Assembly: GCA_029887795.1 (NCBI GenBank)
Contig: JARXPE010000001.1
Location: 129,386 to 193,385, forward strand
Source of the DNA: Thermoproteota archaeon
Lineage (GTDB): Archaea; Thermoproteota; Methanomethylicia; Methanomethylicales; Methanomethylicaceae
Direction of reading: 5' to 3'
DNA: 64,000 nt
Made by a program: the position numbers and the translations under genes. The stretch's first letter is position 1. The number at the start of each line of letters is the position of its first letter. Below are positions 36,180 through 48,977 of the stretch, in pieces. The notes under the pieces are model-generated. The model saw only the letters and a list, made by a program, of their open reading frames with translations, was not told the DNA's origin and searched no databases.

Positions 36180-36524
36180 TCACTTGGGAGGCGCGTTGAC
36201 TGCGATGAGCCACAGCGGTGTCTTTCCGATGTTCTTTATGGAATGGGGAACGTTTGGCGGAAAAACGAGGGCGTTGCCTGCCTTCACCTTGTACTCCTCG
36301 TTACCTATTGTGACCAGCGCCCTACCCTTCAGTATGTAGTAAGCTTGTTCGAATGGGTGGGTATGGGGATCTGCTCTACCACCAACCTCAAACTCAGACC
36401 TGAACATAGAGAGGTTCTTGCACCCAACATTTGCCTCCTCAAGTAAGACTCTAGTTATGCACCCATAGTGCAGCGGAGGGACAAAGGTGCGTGCTTCTTT
36501 TGGATCTATAACACGTTTCGTCAT
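36180..36524 (-). CDS. Cupin-domain protein
   Basis: PHTHPFEQ...G...PPNVPH cupin motifs. Confidence 0.9.
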   Translation of the reverse strand: MTKRVIDPKEARTFVPPLHYGCITRVLLEEANVGCKNLSMFRSEFEVGGRADPHTHPFEQAYYILKGRALVTIGNEEYKVKAGNALVFPPNVPHSIKNIGKTPLWLIAVNAPPK

Positions 36525-36678
36525 TTAAAACACCTTGAAGTATTTGGGCATCTAGGACTTAAATAAGTGTTGGCAAGAAATATGAGAAATTGCCACTTTT
36601 TGATGCTTTTTGTGTTATTGTTCGTTGCTAGTTGTTGGTGTTCGTATTTTTTGCTCATTATTTGCTAATTTTATGTCG

Positions 36679-37446
36679 TCAGAGTGGAATGAGAGCCCTT
36701 ATGTTGGAGTAGGTGATCATCTGGATGTCCCTTCCACCAACCCCAGCGCGGTCCAGGTAGTGGGCAACCCGTGGGAGGGAGAGCGGATCTGAAGGTTTGT
36801 TGCCAATATCGCTGTTGAGTACGATGCCCTCCGGACCGTTCTTTAGTATAACTTCATGGACGTCTTTTGGGGTGAGTTTGCCAGGTTGGACTGTCAGACC
36901 CACGTTGGCACCTATGGACCTCACCTTCGCCACTAGGTCGGGAGTTAAATGATCAATAATTACCCTAGCGGGATCTACATTCTCAGACTCGATGATTCCG
37001 AGGAGTTTGTCCACGATCTTTTCTTTGTTGTTCCTCGGGGTGTGCATGATCATTGGTACGGGGTACTCGTTTGCGATCCGAATCTGCTGGGTCAATACGT
37101 ACTCCTCTTCTTGGCTGCCAGTCTCTAGACCGACCTCACCGAGTGCAGAGGCTTTCTCGTTATCAAAGAGTGCGAGGATGTGGTCTAGAACTGCCTTGAG
37201 ATCCTCCTCGGGGATGGACCTCGGGTGAATGCCCACGGCAACCCTCGAGCTTATACCGTATGAGCTGAGTCTCATTGGCTCCTCTTCCATGACCCAACGG
37301 AACAGGTCACGCATGGTCGAGAAGCCCAATGGTTGAACAGGGAAAAAGGAGCAGATGATGACGCCTTCTACACCAGCGACGGACATAAGCTCAAGGTCTT
37401 CCGGACCCCTGAGGTAAGTATGGGTATGAGAGTCGATGAACCTCAA
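36679..37446 (-). CDS. TatD-related metal-dependent hydrolase
   Basis: DSHTH, GIHP, GEVGLE, HTPR, IDH, NSD. Confidence 0.85.
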   Translation of the reverse strand: MRFIDSHTHTYLRGPEDLELMSVAGVEGVIICSFFPVQPLGFSTMRDLFRWVMEEEPMRLSSYGISSRVAVGIHPRSIPEEDLKAVLDHILALFDNEKASALGEVGLETGSQEEEYVLTQQIRIANEYPVPMIMHTPRNNKEKIVDKLLGIIESENVDPARVIIDHLTPDLVAKVRSIGANVGLTVQPGKLTPKDVHEVILKNGPEGIVLNSDIGNKPSDPLSLPRVAHYLDRAGVGGRDIQMITYSNIRALIPL

Positions 37447-37540
37447 CAGAGTCCCCCATAAAAAATGTTTTGGGATATTGTTTTTAACTTTTAGATTTAA
37501 ATTGGCGGATTGTAGATTAATTTTGGATTTTTACTTTGGC

Positions 37541-37960
37541 TCAGAGGTATTTCTTGATCTCGGCTTCAAGCCCGCTCGCCCCTACAGCACCAACGAGGCG
37601 CCCCACTTCTTTGCCGTTCTTGAAGAATACGAATGTAGGTATTCCATATATCCCGAGCCTCTGGGGGACCTCGGGATTTTCGTCAACATTAACTTTTGCC
37701 ATAAGTGCCTTCCCTTCATATTTTTTGGCAAGTTGCTCAAATATTGGCGCCATTATCATGCAAGGTCCACACCACGAAGCCCAGAAGTCGATGACCACCA
37801 ATTTATCGGCCGTTGATACAAAAGAGTCGAATGTTTGATCGTTAAGTTCTACATAACCATGGCTCATTTTTTTCTCACCACCAGTATATTTCTTAGCCAT
37901 AATCTCAGAGAGTTTTCTGGCTTTTATCTTTTCAAGCTCATCATCAAAACTCTCGGACAT
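37541..37960 (-). CDS. trxA: Thioredoxin with N-terminal helical extension
   Basis: DFWASWCGPC, GIPT. Confidence 0.92.
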   Translation of the reverse strand: MSESFDDELEKIKARKLSEIMAKKYTGGEKKMSHGYVELNDQTFDSFVSTADKLVVIDFWASWCGPCMIMAPIFEQLAKKYEGKALMAKVNVDENPEVPQRLGIYGIPTFVFFKNGKEVGRLVGAVGASGLEAEIKKYL

Positions 37961-39351: not shown

Positions 39352-40284
39352 TCAGAGACGACACACTATGTCTTTCCTCAGATCAACACAGCCTATCAGC
39401 GCCAGGAGAACCCTTGCGTCCTCGGTGTTGACAACCCCATGAGCCCTCTCCCTCACTACGAGCTTTGGCTTGTATCCGATGCCGAGACCAACATTTTCTA
39501 TCATAAAAAGGTCGTTCGCACCGTCTCCAACCGCCACGCATGCCTCTAAGCCCACTCCAACCTTCGCGGCAATGGTTTTTATCGCCCTTAGTTTTGCTTC
39601 GGGACCAGTCATATATCCCTCAACCTCGCCCGTCAGGCGCCCATCTTTTACTATTAGCTTGTTGGAGAATACGTAATCGGCGCCTATCATCCTGCCGACA
39701 TGTTCGGCGGCAAAATCAAAGCTGCCAGTCACTATCCCTATCACGAAGCCAAGCTCTTTTAGTTTGGATATCAGCTCTTTGACCCCTGGGTTGATTTTTA
39801 TAGATGATTTTATCCGATCCAAAACCTCAACCGGAAGACCCTCCAATAGCCTGACTCTGGATCTCAGGGCCTCGAGGAAGTTCAACTTGCCTTCCATGGC
39901 GAGCTTCGTGATCTTTTTTACCTCTTCGCCAACACCAGCAGCCTTAGCCAGCTCCTCTATGACTTCCTGCTCTATCAGAGTCCCGTCTAGGTCGAATACT
40001 ATGATCTTCTTTCCACACCTGTAGCTCTGGCACGACTCTGCAGCCAGAGCCAACCCTACATCGTCACAGCTGTTCTTTAGGATGTTCAACAAGATGTCTC
40101 GTCTTATAACGGAGGTCTTGGTATCAACCACCATGATCATCAAAAACAGGTCGTTAAAGATTGTCGAAGCTCTCGTCTTTATAATGTTCGCGTGGAATCT
40201 GGCAAGGACCCCAGACACTGTGGCAACAATGCCTGGACGGTCTTTACCCAGTACTGTGATGACTAGTCTACCGTCCTCCTGCAT
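39352..40284 (-). CDS. serB: Phosphoserine phosphatase with N-terminal ACT domain
   Basis: GKDRPGIV ACT; FDLDGTLI, E.I.ELA, AMEG, GDGANDL. Confidence 0.9.
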   Translation of the reverse strand: MQEDGRLVITVLGKDRPGIVATVSGVLARFHANIIKTRASTIFNDLFLMIMVVDTKTSVIRRDILLNILKNSCDDVGLALAAESCQSYRCGKKIIVFDLDGTLIEQEVIEELAKAAGVGEEVKKITKLAMEGKLNFLEALRSRVRLLEGLPVEVLDRIKSSIKINPGVKELISKLKELGFVIGIVTGSFDFAAEHVGRMIGADYVFSNKLIVKDGRLTGEVEGYMTGPEAKLRAIKTIAAKVGVGLEACVAVGDGANDLFMIENVGLGIGYKPKLVVRERAHGVVNTEDARVLLALIGCVDLRKDIVCRL

Positions 40285-40534
40285 AATAGAAAGACACCTC
40301 TAGCCCAAGCTCGTGGCAGATGTATTCCAGCTTGTTACGAAAGGCGTTGAGATCCAGAGCCGCAGCGAGCTTGATGAGCATGGAGAGTATGAAAATTCCC
40401 TTCATTACAACTTGATCCATGTCCTCAATATTGCATCCGAACTCAGATATGACTGAAGAGATCTCGGCGATTAAGCCTGGGCGATCCGGCCCCACGGCAG
40501 TAATAACCATGTATCTATCAGCCATAGATGGCAC
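40268..40534 (-). CDS. Stand-alone ACT-domain protein
   Basis: VGPDRPGLIA...NIED..Q. Confidence 0.85.
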   Translation of the reverse strand: MPSMADRYMVITAVGPDRPGLIAEISSVISEFGCNIEDMDQVVMKGIFILSMLIKLAAALDLNAFRNKLEYICHELGLEVSFYYAGGR

Positions 40535-40612
40535 CGAGTGACCATCGAAGATTGTACAGAAAATCTAATTAAGTTTTCGTATGAATATTGGAAACATTGC
40601 GAGGGACGATGG

Positions 40613-41251
40613 GTGGGCAATGTTAAACTTGAGGCGCTCAAAGAGGCTCTACTTGAGCAGAATCAAAGAAAGGCGAAAGATCTCACAGAGGAATTTTTGC
40701 GGGAAGGGGTGGAGCCAAAGGAGATAATTGATGTGATATCTGAGGGCCTAAGATTAATTGGAGATCTGTTTGAGAAGGGCGAGTTCTTTCTGCCGGAGGT
40801 TATGAGGGCAGCGAATGCAGCCAAGGCATCTTTGGGCGTCGTGTTACCAATGATGGTTAAGGAGAATGTTGGTGATGGGCGAGGAGTGATTGCGATAGGC
40901 TCGCTGGGACCACATGACATCGGAAAGACCATAGTATCTTCGATGTTAATCGCAGATGGTTTCAAGGTGCTGGACATGGGCATCAACGTGACGCCGAGCA
41001 TCGTGGAGGATTTCCTAAGAAATAATAAAGTGGATATACTCGCCCTCTCAATTCTGCTAACATCCGACATAGATAAAGGTGCCAACATTATCGAGAGGGC
41101 AAGGAAGGTCTTAAGCGGTCTCAAGGTGATGGTGGGTGGAGCGGCTATGAGCCAAGATATTGCAAGAAAAATAAGGGCTGACGCGTACGGTAGGGACGCA
41201 AGCGAGGCTGTGAAGATAGCAAGAGAGCTTATTGGGGGTAAAGAGAAATGA
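40613..41251 (+). CDS. Corrinoid-binding protein (MtaC/MetH cap + B12-binding domain)
   Basis: GDLFEKGEFFLPEV cap, HDIGK.IV, S.LL, MVGGA, ADAY; start placed at GTG. Confidence 0.85.
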   Translation: MGNVKLEALKEALLEQNQRKAKDLTEEFLREGVEPKEIIDVISEGLRLIGDLFEKGEFFLPEVMRAANAAKASLGVVLPMMVKENVGDGRGVIAIGSLGPHDIGKTIVSSMLIADGFKVLDMGINVTPSIVEDFLRNNKVDILALSILLTSDIDKGANIIERARKVLSGLKVMVGGAAMSQDIARKIRADAYGRDASEAVKIARELIGGKEK

Positions 41252-42138
41252 TGACAATGAGAACGACCGTTATCGGGAGTTATCCGGTGGTTGGTGAGGG
41301 TCTGGAGGCAATAAAGACTGCTGTGAACGACCAGCTGGAGGCAGGCATTGAAATAATAAGCGATGGGCAGACGAGAAAGGACATGGTGTGCTATTTCGCA
41401 GACCACATACCCGGGTTTAAGGTTGAAGACGAGAAAGCTAAGATTGTAGGAAAGGTGAGACCCCCAGAAGAAACTCCCGTAGTGGACGACTTGATATTTG
41501 CGAGAAAGTTGGCTGGTGAAAGGGCCGAGGTGAAGGCCATAATTACCGGTCCTGTCACAATGGTTTTCTTTTCCGAACTTGCCCCAGAGGCACCCTATGC
41601 CGGGTTCCGGGACGAGAGGCTTTACGAGGATGTAAGCGAAGCCCTAGCTGTGGAGGTGGAGATTATTCAGAAGGCGGGCTTTACGAAGATACAGATAGAC
41701 GAACCCAGTTTTTCAATCGGGGCGCCCATGAATATAGGGAGAAAGGCGCTCGAATCGATCGTGTCCGACTTGAAGGGAACAAAAGCGCTTCATGTTTGTG
41801 GAAACCTTAGGAGGGTCTTCGGAGAGATCGTGAAGATAGAGGGGTTGGACGTCCTAAGCTTTTCATTCAAGGATAACGTCAGCAACTTTGACAGCGTTGA
41901 GAAGAAGCTTCTGAAGGATTACTCAAAGAAGCTCGGCGTGGGTTGTGTAAGTACGATGAGCCCAGAGGTGGAGGACGTGGACTCTATTAAGAAGGTACTG
42001 ACAAGGGCGGTTGGGTTATATGGATCGGAAAATATCGAGTGGGTTCATCCCGATTGTGGGCTGAGATCCTTCAAAAGGGATGAGGCGTTCATGAAACTCA
42101 AGAACATGGTCACTGCGGTGAGGGAGCTGAGGGGATAA
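41248..42138 (+). CDS. Core (single-barrel) methionine synthase-like methyltransferase, MesA-type
   Basis: TTVIGSYP, SDGQTR, ITGPVT, QIDEP, LHVCG, PDCGL; 296 aa, no N-terminal MetE barrel. Confidence 0.82.
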   Translation: MMTMRTTVIGSYPVVGEGLEAIKTAVNDQLEAGIEIISDGQTRKDMVCYFADHIPGFKVEDEKAKIVGKVRPPEETPVVDDLIFARKLAGERAEVKAIITGPVTMVFFSELAPEAPYAGFRDERLYEDVSEALAVEVEIIQKAGFTKIQIDEPSFSIGAPMNIGRKALESIVSDLKGTKALHVCGNLRRVFGEIVKIEGLDVLSFSFKDNVSNFDSVEKKLLKDYSKKLGVGCVSTMSPEVEDVDSIKKVLTRAVGLYGSENIEWVHPDCGLRSFKRDEAFMKLKNMVTAVRELRG

Positions 42139-43007
42139 TGGAAGTCCGCTTGGGTAACATAAAATTTGGCGATGTGCCGGTCATGATAGGCAGCCTGTTC
42201 TATAAATCGGACAGGAAGGTAATCGATCATAAAAGAGGCGATGTAAACAGACCAGCACTCCTTAGGGAGCTGAAGAGTGTCTCAAAACTCAAGGAAAGGA
42301 CGGGACTGTTTCATGCCCTAGACATAATAGCGGAAACTCCGGAGGCGATGGAAAGGTACATAGCCGCAGTTGCCGAGTTAACCGATGATCCCTTGCTCAT
42401 AGGGGGCCTCAATGAAGATACCAGAATCGCAGGTTACAGGAAGGCGTCCGAGTTGGGTCTGGTGGACAGGTGCGGTATAAATTCGGTGTCGCTTGCGACC
42501 AGCGAAAGGGAGCTAGAATGCATCAAAGATAGCGGGATTAAATTCGCAATAGTCCAGACATTGGACCCAGCTGCGGTTTACCCAGAAGAGAAGCTTCAAG
42601 TTTTGAAAGGAGGGCTCCTTGAAAGGTGCAGGAACGCCGGCATCACTGATGTTGCTATAGATGTCGGCATAATAGACTTCACGAGTGTCTGGCTGGCGGC
42701 AGAGTCGATTAAGGCGGTGAAGAATGAGCTTGGACTGCCTGCTGGATGTGCGCCCTCCAACGTTGCTTATCAGCCCCTGTTGAAGAAGAAGGTGACCAAG
42801 AGGGTCGCGAGATCGATGAATGTGGCACTCAACACGATGATACAAATCGCGGGGGCAGATTTCATACTGTATGGACCACTTAGGGCAGCAGGGTATATAT
42901 TCGAGGCAGCAGCCACAGTTGAGGGAATAAAGGCTTATGGAGAGAAGTTGAAGGGGAAGGCTTTTGAGAAGAGCCACCCACTTTATAAGTTCCTAGCTAA
43001 ACTCTGA
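42138..43007 (+). CDS. mtrH: MtrH-like methyl-pterin:corrinoid methyltransferase
   Basis: PVMIGSLFY...V.D..RG, NSV, GLPAGCAPSN, GADFILYGP, HPLYK. Confidence 0.8.
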   Translation: MEVRLGNIKFGDVPVMIGSLFYKSDRKVIDHKRGDVNRPALLRELKSVSKLKERTGLFHALDIIAETPEAMERYIAAVAELTDDPLLIGGLNEDTRIAGYRKASELGLVDRCGINSVSLATSERELECIKDSGIKFAIVQTLDPAAVYPEEKLQVLKGGLLERCRNAGITDVAIDVGIIDFTSVWLAAESIKAVKNELGLPAGCAPSNVAYQPLLKKKVTKRVARSMNVALNTMIQIAGADFILYGPLRAAGYIFEAAATVEGIKAYGEKLKGKAFEKSHPLYKFLAKL

Positions 43008-43024
43008 TATGTGGAGGGGGAAAT

Positions 43025-43255
43025 TTGGTTCTCGCGTGCGTCCTTATACACTGCAAGCCAGGGACTGCGACAGATGTCCTGAATAAGATAAAGGAGATAA
43101 AGGGTGTGAGAAGAGCGTTTGAGACCCTAGGAGGATATGATGTTGTCGTAGAATATGAGTTTCAGAGCCTTGAGAAGCTCGGAATAACAGTATATGAGAT
43201 AGCAAAGCTACCGGGCGTGGTCTCAACGGAGACCCTGATAGAGACACTATTGTGA
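43025..43255 (+). CDS. Stand-alone Lrp/AsnC ligand-binding domain protein
   Basis: ACVLI..KPG, LGGYDVV, PGVVSTETLI. Confidence 0.85.
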   Translation: MVLACVLIHCKPGTATDVLNKIKEIKGVRRAFETLGGYDVVVEYEFQSLEKLGITVYEIAKLPGVVSTETLIETLL

Positions 43256-43256
43256 G

Positions 43257-43490
43257 GTGGTAGTCTTGGTTCAGGTCCTCGTGTTGATAAATGCCGAGAA
43301 GGTTTCAGTACTTGACGTTGTTGGAAAGCTGGAGAAGATGCCAGAGGTTTTGAGTGTTTTCCCTACCTTTGGTAGGTTTGATGTAGTGGCGTTCTGCAAC
43401 GTCGGCAATAGGGAGAGCGTTAGAGATTTGGTAAGAAAGATAGCTGCGCTCCAGGGAGTGTTGAAGACAGAGACCCTAGTGGAACTATGA
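43257..43490 (+). CDS. Stand-alone Lrp/AsnC ligand-binding domain protein
   Basis: VLIN, FGRFDVV, GVLKTETLV. Confidence 0.85.
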   Translation: MVVLVQVLVLINAEKVSVLDVVGKLEKMPEVLSVFPTFGRFDVVAFCNVGNRESVRDLVRKIAALQGVLKTETLVEL

Positions 43491-45369: not shown

Positions 45370-46149
45370 ATGTCCTTCGACAAACTAAAGGTTGTTGGAT
45401 TCTCGGATTTGGAGATAAAGTTGTACGAATATTTGATTAAAAAAGGAAGCTGCAAGAAAGAGGATTTGCTTAGAGATTTAGGTCTGAATGAGAAGGACCT
45501 GAATGAGCACATCTCAAAGATGTCGTCTTTAGGCGCCATAGAAATTGTTGATGATTTGGTCTCTCCTTCGCCTCCGAGGTCATTTCTTCAAAAGTACTTG
45601 AGACTCAAGGAGGTGGAGGTAGATCTTCAGCTTGCCGAGCTTAAGAAGGTTGTCAATGAACTCCAGATGGTGTTGGAGCCTATATTCAGCGAGAGCAAAT
45701 ACGGAGTAAGGTTGGAAGACCTCTGGCAGACGATAGAGAGCCTATCGAGCATGGAAATGGAGACTATAAGGATGATATCTCGGGCAAATTCAGAGATATC
45801 CATATTGGCAGAACGTTTTAGCTACTACCCAAAGGTCAGAGAGGAGTTGCTCTCGGCTCTGGACAGGAAGGTTAGGGTCAGGGTGCTTCTGCTGGCGCTT
45901 GACAAGGAAAATGAAGGTAGGGTCGAGGACCTAAAGAGGAACAAGGTTGAGGTGAGGTTGGCAAGATGCGACTGGAGAAGTGTGAGGTTTACTCTGGTGG
46001 ACAGGAGAGAGGCGATATTCCTGATTTGGGCAAAGAAGAGCGGAGAGAACAGGGTATTCTACAGACCAGGCTATACGAAGAACCCGGGGATGGTGAGCGT
46101 CTTCTCGGACTCCTTCGAGTATCTATGGGACAAGGCACTGCCACTCTGA
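45370..46149 (+). CDS. TrmB-family transcriptional regulator
   Basis: GFSDLEIKLYEYL wHTH; PLD-like C-terminus (VRVRVL, FTLVD, FEYLW). Confidence 0.8.
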   Translation: MSFDKLKVVGFSDLEIKLYEYLIKKGSCKKEDLLRDLGLNEKDLNEHISKMSSLGAIEIVDDLVSPSPPRSFLQKYLRLKEVEVDLQLAELKKVVNELQMVLEPIFSESKYGVRLEDLWQTIESLSSMEMETIRMISRANSEISILAERFSYYPKVREELLSALDRKVRVRVLLLALDKENEGRVEDLKRNKVEVRLARCDWRSVRFTLVDRREAIFLIWAKKSGENRVFYRPGYTKNPGMVSVFSDSFEYLWDKALPL

Positions 46150-47111
46150 AGAGAGTGAGAGTCTCGTTAGGGACTGCCATCGAGCTAGGTCTGATCCGTG
46201 GTCTCCAGAAGGATAAGCCCACTACGGCATACCTTTTCATGATCGGTAATGGTTGTAGGGGAAAGTGTAATTTTTGCCCTCAAGCGGCTGGAATGTCTGA
46301 GAATATATCAAGGGTGAGCTGGCCCGAACTCCCTTTGGAAGAGGTCCTGAAAGGGCTAAGGGACAAACATAGCTTTGAAAGGGTTTGTGTCCAGTGCGCC
46401 GAAGAAGATGGTTTAACAAGGCGACTAGTTTATTTTGTAAAAAGCCTGAGGCATGAGACAAGTCTCCCGATTTCGGTCTCCATGCCTTGTGTTTCTCGTG
46501 AAGAGCTGCTTGCTTTAAAGACAGTAGGGGTCGACGTTTTGACGATACCTCTGGACTGTGCTAATGAAGGTTTATTCCGAAAAGTAAAGGGAAGGGATTG
46601 GGGGGACCGCTGGTTGGCTTTGCATAAGGCCTTGGAGGTATTTGGTCCCAACAGAGTCGGAACGCATATAATAGCAGGGCTTGGGGAGACTGAAAGAGAC
46701 ATCGTGAATGTATTTTCAAAATGCAAACGGGAGGGGATCGTGCCCTCGCTATTCGCTTTTACGCCGATAAGGGGGACGCCCCTTTGGGGGAGACCGCAAC
46801 CAGATTTGGCATCCTACAGAAGGTTGCAGCTAGCTAGGGAGCTCATACTGAGCGGGAGGGCGACAGAGACGGATTTCACCTATGACAGCCTCGGGAGGAT
46901 TATCGGGTTCAATGTTAGCAGAAATGTAATAGAGGAGGTTATTAATGAGGGTAGCGCCTTTATGACCAGAGGATGCCTAGGCTGTAACAGACCGTACTTC
47001 AATGAGAAGGTCTCAGGACCCATCTACAACTACCCCCGCAAACTGGAAAGTAAGGAGATTGAAGAAGTCAGGAGGGAATTATTTGGAGGGATTGAGGGTC
47101 TTAAGGTTTGA
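46125..47111 (+). CDS. lipS2: Archaeal-type lipoyl synthase component (LipS2-type radical SAM)
   Basis: PTTAYL, CRGKCNFCPQA, C-terminal TRGCLGCNRPYFNE. Confidence 0.8.
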   Translation: MGQGTATLKRVRVSLGTAIELGLIRGLQKDKPTTAYLFMIGNGCRGKCNFCPQAAGMSENISRVSWPELPLEEVLKGLRDKHSFERVCVQCAEEDGLTRRLVYFVKSLRHETSLPISVSMPCVSREELLALKTVGVDVLTIPLDCANEGLFRKVKGRDWGDRWLALHKALEVFGPNRVGTHIIAGLGETERDIVNVFSKCKREGIVPSLFAFTPIRGTPLWGRPQPDLASYRRLQLARELILSGRATETDFTYDSLGRIIGFNVSRNVIEEVINEGSAFMTRGCLGCNRPYFNEKVSGPIYNYPRKLESKEIEEVRRELFGGIEGLKV

Positions 47112-47841
47112 GGTGCAAGACCCGTTTTACAACATGGCGCTGGATGAGGCTATAGCGCGATCCGTTGGAGGGGGGGAAAGCCCGCCAACGCTAAGACTCT
47201 ATGGATGGGCGCAAAGGGCAGTCTCCTTGGGATACTTCCAAGAAATTCTGGAGGAGGTCGATTTGGGTTTTTGTAGAGAGAAGGGTATAGAGGTAGTTAG
47301 GAGGATAACAGGTGGAGGTGCCGTGCTACACACGGAAGGGGAGCTCACATATAGCTTCGCGGTGAAGGACGATGGTTCTTACGTGCCCGAGGACATTGAA
47401 GAAAGTTACAAAAGGATATGTTCACCAATAGTGGCGTGCATCAGGAGGCTTGGCGCGGAGGCAGTATTTAGACCGATAAACGACATTGAGGTAGCAGGCA
47501 AGAAGGTCTCAGGAAATGCCCAGACTAGGAGGTTCGGGGCAGTTCTCCAGCATGGAACCCTCCTTCTTTCCATAGATTATTCAATGTTGAGAGCGCTAAG
47601 ACCGAGGGTAGAAAAGTTGAGGGATAAGGGGGTTTCGGATGTCGGCGGGAGGGTCACAACGCTGAAGGAAATCCTCAAGTTTGAGCCAGATAGAGAAAGT
47701 GTGGCAGATATATTGGCGGAGGAGTTCGGAAAGTCGTTAGGGCTAGAGTTGAGATACGGAAGGATCACAGATAAGGAGAGGGAGCTTGCTAGGGATTTGG
47801 TCCGGAAGTACAGGTCAGAGGAATGGACCTTCAGGAGGTAA
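47092..47841 (+). CDS. lplA: Lipoate/octanoate-protein ligase catalytic subunit
   Basis: NMALDEA, VRRITGGGAVLH, NDI...KKVSGNAQ, QHGTLL. Confidence 0.92.
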   Translation: MRVLRFEVQDPFYNMALDEAIARSVGGGESPPTLRLYGWAQRAVSLGYFQEILEEVDLGFCREKGIEVVRRITGGGAVLHTEGELTYSFAVKDDGSYVPEDIEESYKRICSPIVACIRRLGAEAVFRPINDIEVAGKKVSGNAQTRRFGAVLQHGTLLLSIDYSMLRALRPRVEKLRDKGVSDVGGRVTTLKEILKFEPDRESVADILAEEFGKSLGLELRYGRITDKERELARDLVRKYRSEEWTFRR

Positions 47842-47845
47842 TATA

Positions 47846-48124
47846 GTGGAGATGGTTGGGATCAAGAAGGTGAAGGGAGGCAAGCTCATCAAAGTTAGGG
47901 TCGAAGAGGAAGGTGGAATTATAAAGGAGGTGAAGATCTCCGGAGACTTCTTTGTCCATCCGGAAGACGCCATAGAGGATATCGAGAAGTCCTTGAAAGG
48001 GGTACATTTGAGCAAGGTGAGGGAGGCACTGCGTGATTTTGCCATGAGGAAGACTGTCAGGACAGTCGGCTTTGCTCTTGATGATATCGCAGATGTTATA
48101 GAGGGGCGAAGCGATGGTATTTAG
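47846..48124 (+). CDS. lplB: Lipoate-protein ligase accessory subunit (LplB, split C-terminal domain)
   Basis: KVKGGKLI, ISGDFFVHPE. Confidence 0.85.
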   Translation: MEMVGIKKVKGGKLIKVRVEEEGGIIKEVKISGDFFVHPEDAIEDIEKSLKGVHLSKVREALRDFAMRKTVRTVGFALDDIADVIEGRSDGI

Positions 48125-48977
48125 TTACAGACCAAAGCCCTCCGTGTACAGCGTTTCGATTACTGGTCATCGATGTGAGCTATGTTGCAGACATTGCCAA
48201 GGGAAATACCTAACAGGTATGGAGGCGGCAGAAAATCCAGAGAGGCTCCTTGAAGCTTTTTTAAAGGCGAAGGCTAAGGGAGCAAAAAGCATCTTAATAA
48301 GCGGAGGCTTTGACAAGCGGGGCAGGTTGCCAGTTATGGACTTTCTGAGCACAATAAGGAAGGGAAAAAACAGGACAGGATTGGTTGTCGAGGTCCACTC
48401 GGGATTAATTAAGGAGGTGGATAAATTGATGGACTCGGGTGTAGACGCCTTACTTCTGGATGTCATAGGAGACCAAGAGACCATAGAGGAGTACCTCGGG
48501 GGCGGGTGGTCGGCTGGAGAGTATTTGGATGTCTTGCGGGAGGGTAAGAGGTTTGTCCCACTGGTTGCAGCCCACATATTGGTCGGGGTCAACGAAGGAA
48601 AAATAAAGGGAGAGTTCGAGGCGGTAGACATGGTAGCAGAGGCGAAGGCGGATGCCCTCTCTATATTGACGCCCATGGATGCAAAGTCGCCTGAGGTCGG
48701 GGAAATTGTGGAGGTGATGGACTACGCCAGGGAGAGGTTCAAGGGACACCTGACCTTGGGATGCATGAGAGCAAAGGGGAAAAACCGTCAGGAGATAGAA
48801 AGATTTGCTGTCGATTTGGGTTTCGACGGGATAGCTAACCCGCTAAAAAGGACTTTGACGTACGCGCAATCCGCCGGGGTTAAAGTCGTGGAGGTTGAAG
48901 GATGCTGCGTATTCACTCCAGATAGAATTCCCAAGAGCACCAGAGATTGTCTGGATGCGCATCTGGAGGGCAGATAA
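48114..48977 (+). CDS. lipS1: Archaeal-type lipoyl synthase component (LipS1-type radical SAM)
   Basis: SITG..CELCCRHC, ISGG, LGCMR and C-terminal CC. Confidence 0.8.
   Translation: MVFSYRPKPSVYSVSITGHRCELCCRHCQGKYLTGMEAAENPERLLEAFLKAKAKGAKSILISGGFDKRGRLPVMDFLSTIRKGKNRTGLVVEVHSGLIKEVDKLMDSGVDALLLDVIGDQETIEEYLGGGWSAGEYLDVLREGKRFVPLVAAHILVGVNEGKIKGEFEAVDMVAEAKADALSILTPMDAKSPEVGEIVEVMDYARERFKGHLTLGCMRAKGKNRQEIERFAVDLGFDGIANPLKRTLTYAQSAGVKVVEVEGCCVFTPDRIPKSTRDCLDAHLEGR

Follow-up and report, generated by a model that had tools for sequence, protein, structure and literature searches.

A predicted three-protein, B12-dependent methionine synthase operon with corrinoid, MesA-like and MtrH-like genes in Methanomethylicaceae

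In our study, a stretch of 64,000 nucleotides (the window; positions 129,386 to 193,385 of contig JARXPE010000001.1) from a Thermoproteota archaeon of the family Methanomethylicaceae was found to contain an operon of five genes on the same strand (window positions 40613–43490). The first three genes encode a corrinoid (B12) protein, a MesA-like core methionine synthase (Mes) and a methyltransferase of the MtrH/MtgA family. The operon is probably (about 60%) a three-protein B12-dependent methionine synthase fed by methyl-folate. From the gene content, gene order, residues and patterns of presence and absence we infer the reactions, their direction, the pterin and the partnerships as follows. 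SerA and SerB would make serine, SerB likely supplying this presumed one-carbon source, and GlyA, with glycine cleavage where present, would yield methylene-folate from it. MetVF would reduce methylene-folate to methyl-folate. The MtrH-like enzyme would transfer the methyl group from methyl-tetrahydrofolate to the corrinoid protein; from the latter, the MesA-like enzyme, a zinc protein, would pass it to homocysteine, giving methionine. Cobalt that has become oxidised would be reduced again by a RACE-type ATPase whose gene lies elsewhere in the genome.

All open reading frames were confirmed at the coordinates given here. The corrinoid protein (40613–41251, plus strand, 212 amino acids) was of the MttC/MtmC/MetH-cap type, with PF02607 and PF02310 above the cut-off. 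It was followed on the plus strand by Mes (41251–42138, alternative ATG at 41248, 295 amino acids), which matched PF01717 and PRK00957, and by the MtrH-like protein (42138–43007, 289 amino acids), which contained PF02007 and the MtgA fold. The three genes were joined by stop/start overlaps, ATGA at 41248–41251 and TAATG at 42136–42140. The five-gene order was kept in 20/20 wider family loci at 50–90% protein identity, and identities as low as 50% point to a long retention of this order; five further family loci agreed with it as far as their contigs extend. An orthologue of the MtrH-like protein was present in 22 of the 24 family relatives. The named neighbours at 63–92% identity belonged to Methanomethylicaceae or Methanosuratincola. 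One named orthologue was found in Methanosuratincola petrocarbonis, a cultured species. An earlier note on this DNA had named beforehand the lack of co-occurrence of the three genes in relatives as one result that would refute its claim of a methyl relay; the genes co-occurred in all 20 family loci, and the claim survived.

PF01717 was the only domain of Mes above the cut-off, and the protein scored 265.3 bits with PRK00957, named 'methionine synthase' (cut-off 258). It comprised the C-terminal domain of MetE alone, the folate-binding N-terminal half being found neither fused nor separate. In the source genome (1.25 Mb, 92% complete, carrying mcrA) it was the sole PF01717 gene, and a single PF01717 gene was also present in 23 of the 24 family relatives. 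The homocysteine S-methyltransferase domain of MetH (PF02574) was over the cut-off in 0/41 genomes. A split MetE was rejected, as no separate N-terminal subunit (PF08267) was found over the cut-off in the family and the weak matches fell inside the Mes gene itself. No candidate for a methionine synthase other than Mes was found in the source genome. The zinc ligands His181, Cys183 and Cys269 were conserved in 66/66 close homologues, in all of which Asp208 was also invariant. The homocysteine residues Ser10, Gln40 and Asp150 were present in 62, 65 and 66 of these homologues, respectively, the misses being gaps; Ser/Gln/Asp is the pattern given for MesA (Price 2021, PMC7857596). Because these residues are kept, the thiol substrate of Mes is likely homocysteine rather than coenzyme M (CoM).

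That the operon is instead a catabolic module, in which the MetE-like protein would methylate CoM and so feed methyl groups to methanogenesis, is very unlikely. Such a methylamine/CoM role was suggested in print for the mtrH of Methanomethyliales (reported in PMC7886697 and in Berghuis 2019, PMC6421429), and MtaB was found in just 5 of 18 family relatives, so that other methyl entries may exist. However, Mes retains the residues for the amino-acid end of homocysteine, and its 265 bits as a methionine synthase stand against 19.5 bits with the MtaA profile (cut-off 400, E = 3.8e-4), which places it outside the URO-D-family MtaA/MtbA proteins. Moreover, separate MtaA-type genes are present, and the cell would be left with no other methionine synthase. 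CoM was rejected as the methyl acceptor on the residues, the scores and the separate MtaA-type genes. A match to MtmB was observed at a contig edge (G000:C27:14–1312), and MtaB was not found in the source genome or in 13 of the 18 family relatives.

Which methyl donor core methionine synthases use in the cell has so far been predicted only (PMC7857596, PMC7005905), the predictions being MtrA for MesA and CoFeSP for MesB/C (Price 2021, PMC7857596); MtrH was once an early candidate partner (Deobald 2020, PMC7005905). MtrA was not found in the source genome; among 32 family genomes, MtrA was found in one and CdhD in none. Since both are missing, the corrinoid protein encoded in the operon itself is the obvious candidate to replace them. 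This protein kept His101, Gly104, Ser146 and GG of the B12-domain consensus DxHxxG...SxL...GG (PMC4915002). A predicted complex of Mes, the corrinoid protein and zinc scored 0.38 against 0.01 for the best control, with at least 61% contact agreement between runs and a partner predicted local distance difference test score (pLDDT) of at least 79. This model lends weak support to the pairing, its score lying in the range (at or below 0.60) where 18 of 157 solved complexes passed in the calibration, as did both of the mismatches that passed. A degenerate B12-binding protein without a match to the usual His motif was observed elsewhere in the genome (G000:C17:2717–3358).

The MtrH-like protein scored 152 bits with PF02007 and was below the equivalog cut-offs of both MtrH (134 vs. 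271) and MtgA (160 vs. 550). Its model (pLDDT 95.1) superposed on MtgA 6sj8 with a Z of 39.2 and a root mean square deviation of 1.8 Å over 286 residues, and on MtrH with a Z of 37.8; by domain and fold it belongs to the MtrH/MtgA family. The pterin-pocket residues Ser19, Asp62, Asn115, Asp175, Ser207 and Asn208 (MtgA Ser32, Asp75, Asn129, Asp194, Ser226 and Asn227) were kept, each in 62–65 of the 65 close homologues, and nearly all the misses were gaps. The position of MtgA His38 contained Asp25, with Asp in 62 of the 65.

MetF was found in the source genome and in 24/24 family relatives, and in 0/16 other genomes of the class; metV adjoined metF in the source genome and in 6/6 loci checked. 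FolD was found in 0/32 family genomes and Fhs in 0/5, and therefore methyl-folate has no other known consumer. This lack of another exit favours the route from serine through methylene-folate and methyl-folate to the MtrH-like protein, the corrinoid protein and homocysteine. The forward direction would be the simplest path, because, if serine is made and cleaved to glycine, methylene-folate results, and the only known consumer of methyl-folate is the MtrH-like protein. GlyA, ThyX, GcvT, GcvH, S-adenosylhomocysteine hydrolase, homoserine dehydrogenase and homoserine kinase were above the cut-offs in the source genome; SerA-like, RACE-like and cystathionine gamma-synthase-like genes were below. 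Of 18 family relatives, 13 contained GcvP, which was not found in the source assembly. The pterin carrier is more likely folate than tetrahydromethanopterin, because neither RFAP synthase nor a Mer-family gene was found in the source genome, the only genome searched for them; tetrahydromethanopterin was disfavoured on this ground. A lipoate assembly cluster of LipS2, lipoate ligase and LipS1 was observed at 45966–48977 of the window and would serve GcvH.

The same genes were considered for the opposite direction. In that case Mes would still make methionine, the methyl groups on the corrinoid protein would come from the pool used for methanogenesis (methylamine, methanol or methyl-CoM systems), the MtrH-like enzyme would run from corrinoid to folate, and MetVF would oxidise methyl-folate for ThyX and for glycine/serine synthesis. 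The closest solved relative, MtgA, works from corrinoid to tetrahydrofolate (THF), and the source genome, which encodes McrA, MtmB and four MtaA-like proteins, is that of a methyl-type methanogen. Without FolD or Fhs, formate cannot feed methylene-folate, and GcvP, in the 13 relatives that have it, could run in reverse. We regard this direction as rather unlikely, however: the SerA-like protein, SerB and GlyA would already yield methylene-folate, the operon was without a substrate-specific methyltransferase in 20/20 loci, and the Asp credited with THF activation for the corrinoid-to-folate direction is the very one that is missing here.

Several observations weigh against a methionine synthase fed by methyl-folate, and the loss of this Asp is the main one. 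The position of MtgA Asp102 contained Gly89, with Gly in 64 of the 65 close homologues and a gap in the other, so that five of the six pterin residues Ser32, Asp75, Asp102, Asn129, Asp194 and Asn227 were kept. The D102A variant of MtgA is inactive (Badmann and Groll, PMC7154762), and AspH102 was termed highly conserved in MtrH (PMC10998594). Outside the family, Asp102 was retained at 10 of 11 MtrH loci, the exception being the sister family. In the corrinoid protein, the Asp of DxHxxG, which belongs to the His-Asp-Ser linkage (PMC4915002), was replaced by Gly99 and was absent from 27/27 family copies, so that of the B12-domain residues of MetH and split MetH the His, Gly, Ser and GG were present and the Asp was not. 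The DxHxxG loop was two residues shorter than in MttC; the three other canonical corrinoid proteins of the source genome retained the Asp. In Mes, the place of the MetE zinc ligand Glu665 (Ser205) was occupied by Ser in 18 of the 66 close homologues and by Ala in the other 48, so that of the MesA zinc ligands (His, Cys, Glu, Cys) three of four remain. Zinc binding was doubted where Gly stands at this place (Price et al., PMC7857596). Among 54 distant homologues, the place contained Glu in 21, Ala in 23, Gly in 9 and Ser in 1, that is, 33/54 were without Glu. The zinc-ligand Glu of MetE departs from zinc upon homocysteine binding and would thus be dispensable. The invariant Asp208 might compensate for its absence from Mes. 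Each of the three enzymes is therefore without one acidic active-site residue throughout the family, which was not in the earlier reading of the locus.

The supply side and the sampling add further points of this kind. Whether the genes allow homocysteine to be made de novo is doubtful: the cystathionine gamma-synthase-like gene scored 465.9, just short of its cut-off of 477, and also resembles methionine gamma-lyase. MetVF-type reductases are reversible, and the presence of MetF therefore does not fix the direction. Dihydropteroate synthase was not found in the source genome and was found in 3 of 18 family relatives, which makes the origin of the pterin uncertain. Weak screens by sequence motif gave nothing convincing for MetX, MetA, MetY, the DUF39 route of methanogens, FolC or FolE. 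The family genomes are kin and not independent tests, and one of them (G020; 93% complete, 230 contigs) contained MetF and no match to Mes or MtrH.

The residue losses are also the ground for a reading in which the MtrH-like protein has ceased to be a folate methyltransferase and instead uses another donor or a modified pterin, or serves as a scaffold or as a sensor of a ligand; methionine would still be made by Mes and the corrinoid protein. The changes of Asp102 to Gly and of His38 to Asp are fixed across a monophyletic Gly-type clade (support 100/99; 27 rows, midpoint root), and the markers of folate and methanopterin synthesis were mostly not found. Yet the remaining six residues of the pterin pocket are conserved, the protein retains its fold (Z 39), and MetF tracks the family in 25/25 genomes. 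In addition, Asp62 nearby and the clade-wide Glu of the GGxxE loop (Glu92) could offset the loss of Asp102. This reading is unlikely. It is equally doubtful that the three partners form a retuned relay, all of them minus an acidic residue, which would be the sole exit for methyl-folate in a cell without FolD, Fhs or the Wood-Ljungdahl pathway. Besides making methionine, such a relay could send surplus methyl groups derived from serine or glycine via the corrinoid protein to MtaA-type enzymes, and amino-acid carbon would be turned into methane.

The methionine synthase fed by methyl-folate is close to what the earlier note had proposed, a self-contained relay from methyl-pterin through a corrinoid to a thiol. 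The co-occurring genes, the lack of a MetH domain or split MetE, and MetVF as a possible supplier of methyl-folate speak for that proposal; the proposed direction and activity of the MtrH-like step are less certain, given the Gly at the Asp102 position. The check for metH, metE and mtr genes elsewhere also agreed with it, since the MetH homocysteine domain, a split-MetE partner and CdhD were not found and MtrA was found in 1/32 family genomes (other mtr subunits were not searched).

Beyond the family, Mes matches at E ≤ 1e-40 were found in 37 of 301 genomes of the phylum. Fourteen of the matches were outside the family; at the nine of these loci that were read, mtrH was present in 0/9 and a corrinoid gene was nearby in 3/9. 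Mes was absent from seven MtrH loci of other families. The 80 metagenome Mes loci comprised 11 of the family type, four with metF-mes-mtrH, two with an unrelated corrinoid gene, and 63 without a corrinoid, MtrH or MetF match in the available DNA, many of these loci being short. At two loci, Mes faced a convergent pair of a corrinoid gene and a gene of ~480 amino acids, MttB-like by eye. The metF-mes-mtrH loci form a second lineage (Mes ~49% identical) with the three genes in one operon; its MtrH keeps Asp102, its Mes has Ala at the Glu665 place, and no corrinoid gene was found in the available DNA. The Gly-type MtrH clade was weakly sister (86/84) to this lineage in the same tree. More distant Mes genes of three genomes (G145, G081 and G109) adjoined a canonical corrinoid gene without mtrH, in two cases with a RACE-type ATPase gene close by, and these neighbourhoods possibly represent another donor route. 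In the sister family, a Gly-type MtrH was found at a contig edge beside thioredoxin, TatD-like and cupin genes, as at 36180–37960 of the window, and no close Mes was found in that genome. One family genome contained an mtrA-mtrH pair, its MtrH keeping Asp102, besides the Gly-type operon copy.

Compared with known systems, Mes resembles MesA of Methanothermobacter (METE_METTM, PMC7857596) in its single MetE barrel, its PRK00957 score above the cut-off, the Ser/Gln/Asp and His/Cys/Cys residues and the methanogen host. It differs in having Ser/Ala at the Glu665 place and in that the predicted donor MtrA is missing in 31/32 family genomes, whereas a corrinoid protein and an MtrH-like protein are co-encoded. 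The inferred chemistry, from methyl-folate to cob(I)amide to homocysteine, equals that of MetH, and the cap and B12 domain are homologous; however, the homocysteine module is of MetE type and not PF02574, the folate module is of MtrH type (15% identity to the MetH folate domain), the DxHxxG Asp is missing, and the operon contains no S-adenosylmethionine reactivation domain, a RACE-like ATPase being encoded elsewhere. The module would thus work like MetH and yet is neither MetH, nor split MetE, nor MesA in the strict sense. MtgA/MtgC of Desulfitobacterium hafniense (PMC7154762) and MtrH of the Mtr complex share the TIM-barrel family, most pterin residues and a corrinoid partner, whereas here Asp102 is Gly, no MtgB/MttB or mtrA-G stands alongside, and the pairing is with a methionine synthase. 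The energy-conserving Mtr complex combines mtrA-G with mtrH; in the source genome MtrA, the subunit searched for besides MtrH, was not found.

A CoP-mtrH cluster adjoining a metE homologue was described in Ca. Methanomethylicus by Loh et al. (2021, PMC7886697), who also considered an anabolic role, and the cluster of Ca. Methanomethylicus mesodigestum is very likely the same as ours. The co-location and the anabolic idea are therefore already published. The anabolic role that the earlier note had given to orphan mtrH gains support from the genomics but is not new. In the part of Loh et al. covered here no pathway, MetF link, residue analysis or test is given, and by the terms searched the Methanomethylicaceae lineage is not mentioned in Price 2021 (PMC7857596). 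The full MetVF-MtrH-corrinoid-Mes pathway and the three residue losses were not found in the literature searched, whose coverage left out most subscription papers, cultivation papers and supplements. With both predicted donors missing and a corrinoid protein co-encoded, the donor question becomes testable with three small soluble proteins. If the assignment is true, a natural partner is named for an enzyme whose methyl donor is so far predicted, and the orphan mtrH of these methanogens would be a sign of methionine synthesis and not of a substrate for methanogenesis. For the enzymology of B12 and zinc proteins, the loss of three acidic residues poses a concrete puzzle.

The earlier note had described overlapping corrinoid, MetE/MesA-like and MtrH-like genes, then two RAM genes, with a divergent ACT-serB unit, and all were found at the locus. 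The two stand-alone RAM (Lrp/AsnC ligand-binding) proteins (43025–43255 and 43257–43490, plus strand) matched PF01037 and were conserved in position. The divergent unit on the minus strand begins with a small ACT-domain protein (40268–40534, its start perhaps an ATG near 40525), followed by the phosphoserine phosphatase ACT-SerB (39352–40284; TIGR00338, 231 bits vs. a cut-off of 144). It was divergent in 19 of the 20 family loci, the 20th stopping at a contig edge. The corrinoid gene starts with GTG, 6 nucleotides after GAGGGA. A longer frame from the GTG at 40538 was rejected, as it would cross the conserved element between the operons and as the codon aligned with 40613 is TTG in close relatives. 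RNA contigs (two runs of one study) covered the RAM genes, serB and mcrBGA but hardly any lay over the genes of the three enzymes; genes cannot be ranked by the depth of contigs, and these data were not used. A sigma-70 promoter/terminator scan of the locus, a model unsuited to archaea, gave results at chance level.

The intergenic element is a conserved, A/T-rich near-palindrome of 20 bp between the divergent operons (40559–40578, no strand), self-complementary at 16 of 20 positions. After six duplicate metagenome loci were dropped, 18 of 22 loci matched its consensus, derived from the same loci, at 17 or more of the 20 positions, against shuffled maxima of 13–15. The element is likely a shared promoter of back-to-back BRE (transcription factor B recognition element) and TATA signals, or an operator; judged by the archaeal consensus, it resembles a single TATA box flanked by a BRE at either end. 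A shared promoter, if true, would couple serine synthesis to the methyl relay. A position weight matrix scan found no copy near metVF, glyA or serA, and therefore no regulon. The copy at the locus was the best match in the genome, and the second-best match (G000:C8:13154) was also found between two divergent genes.

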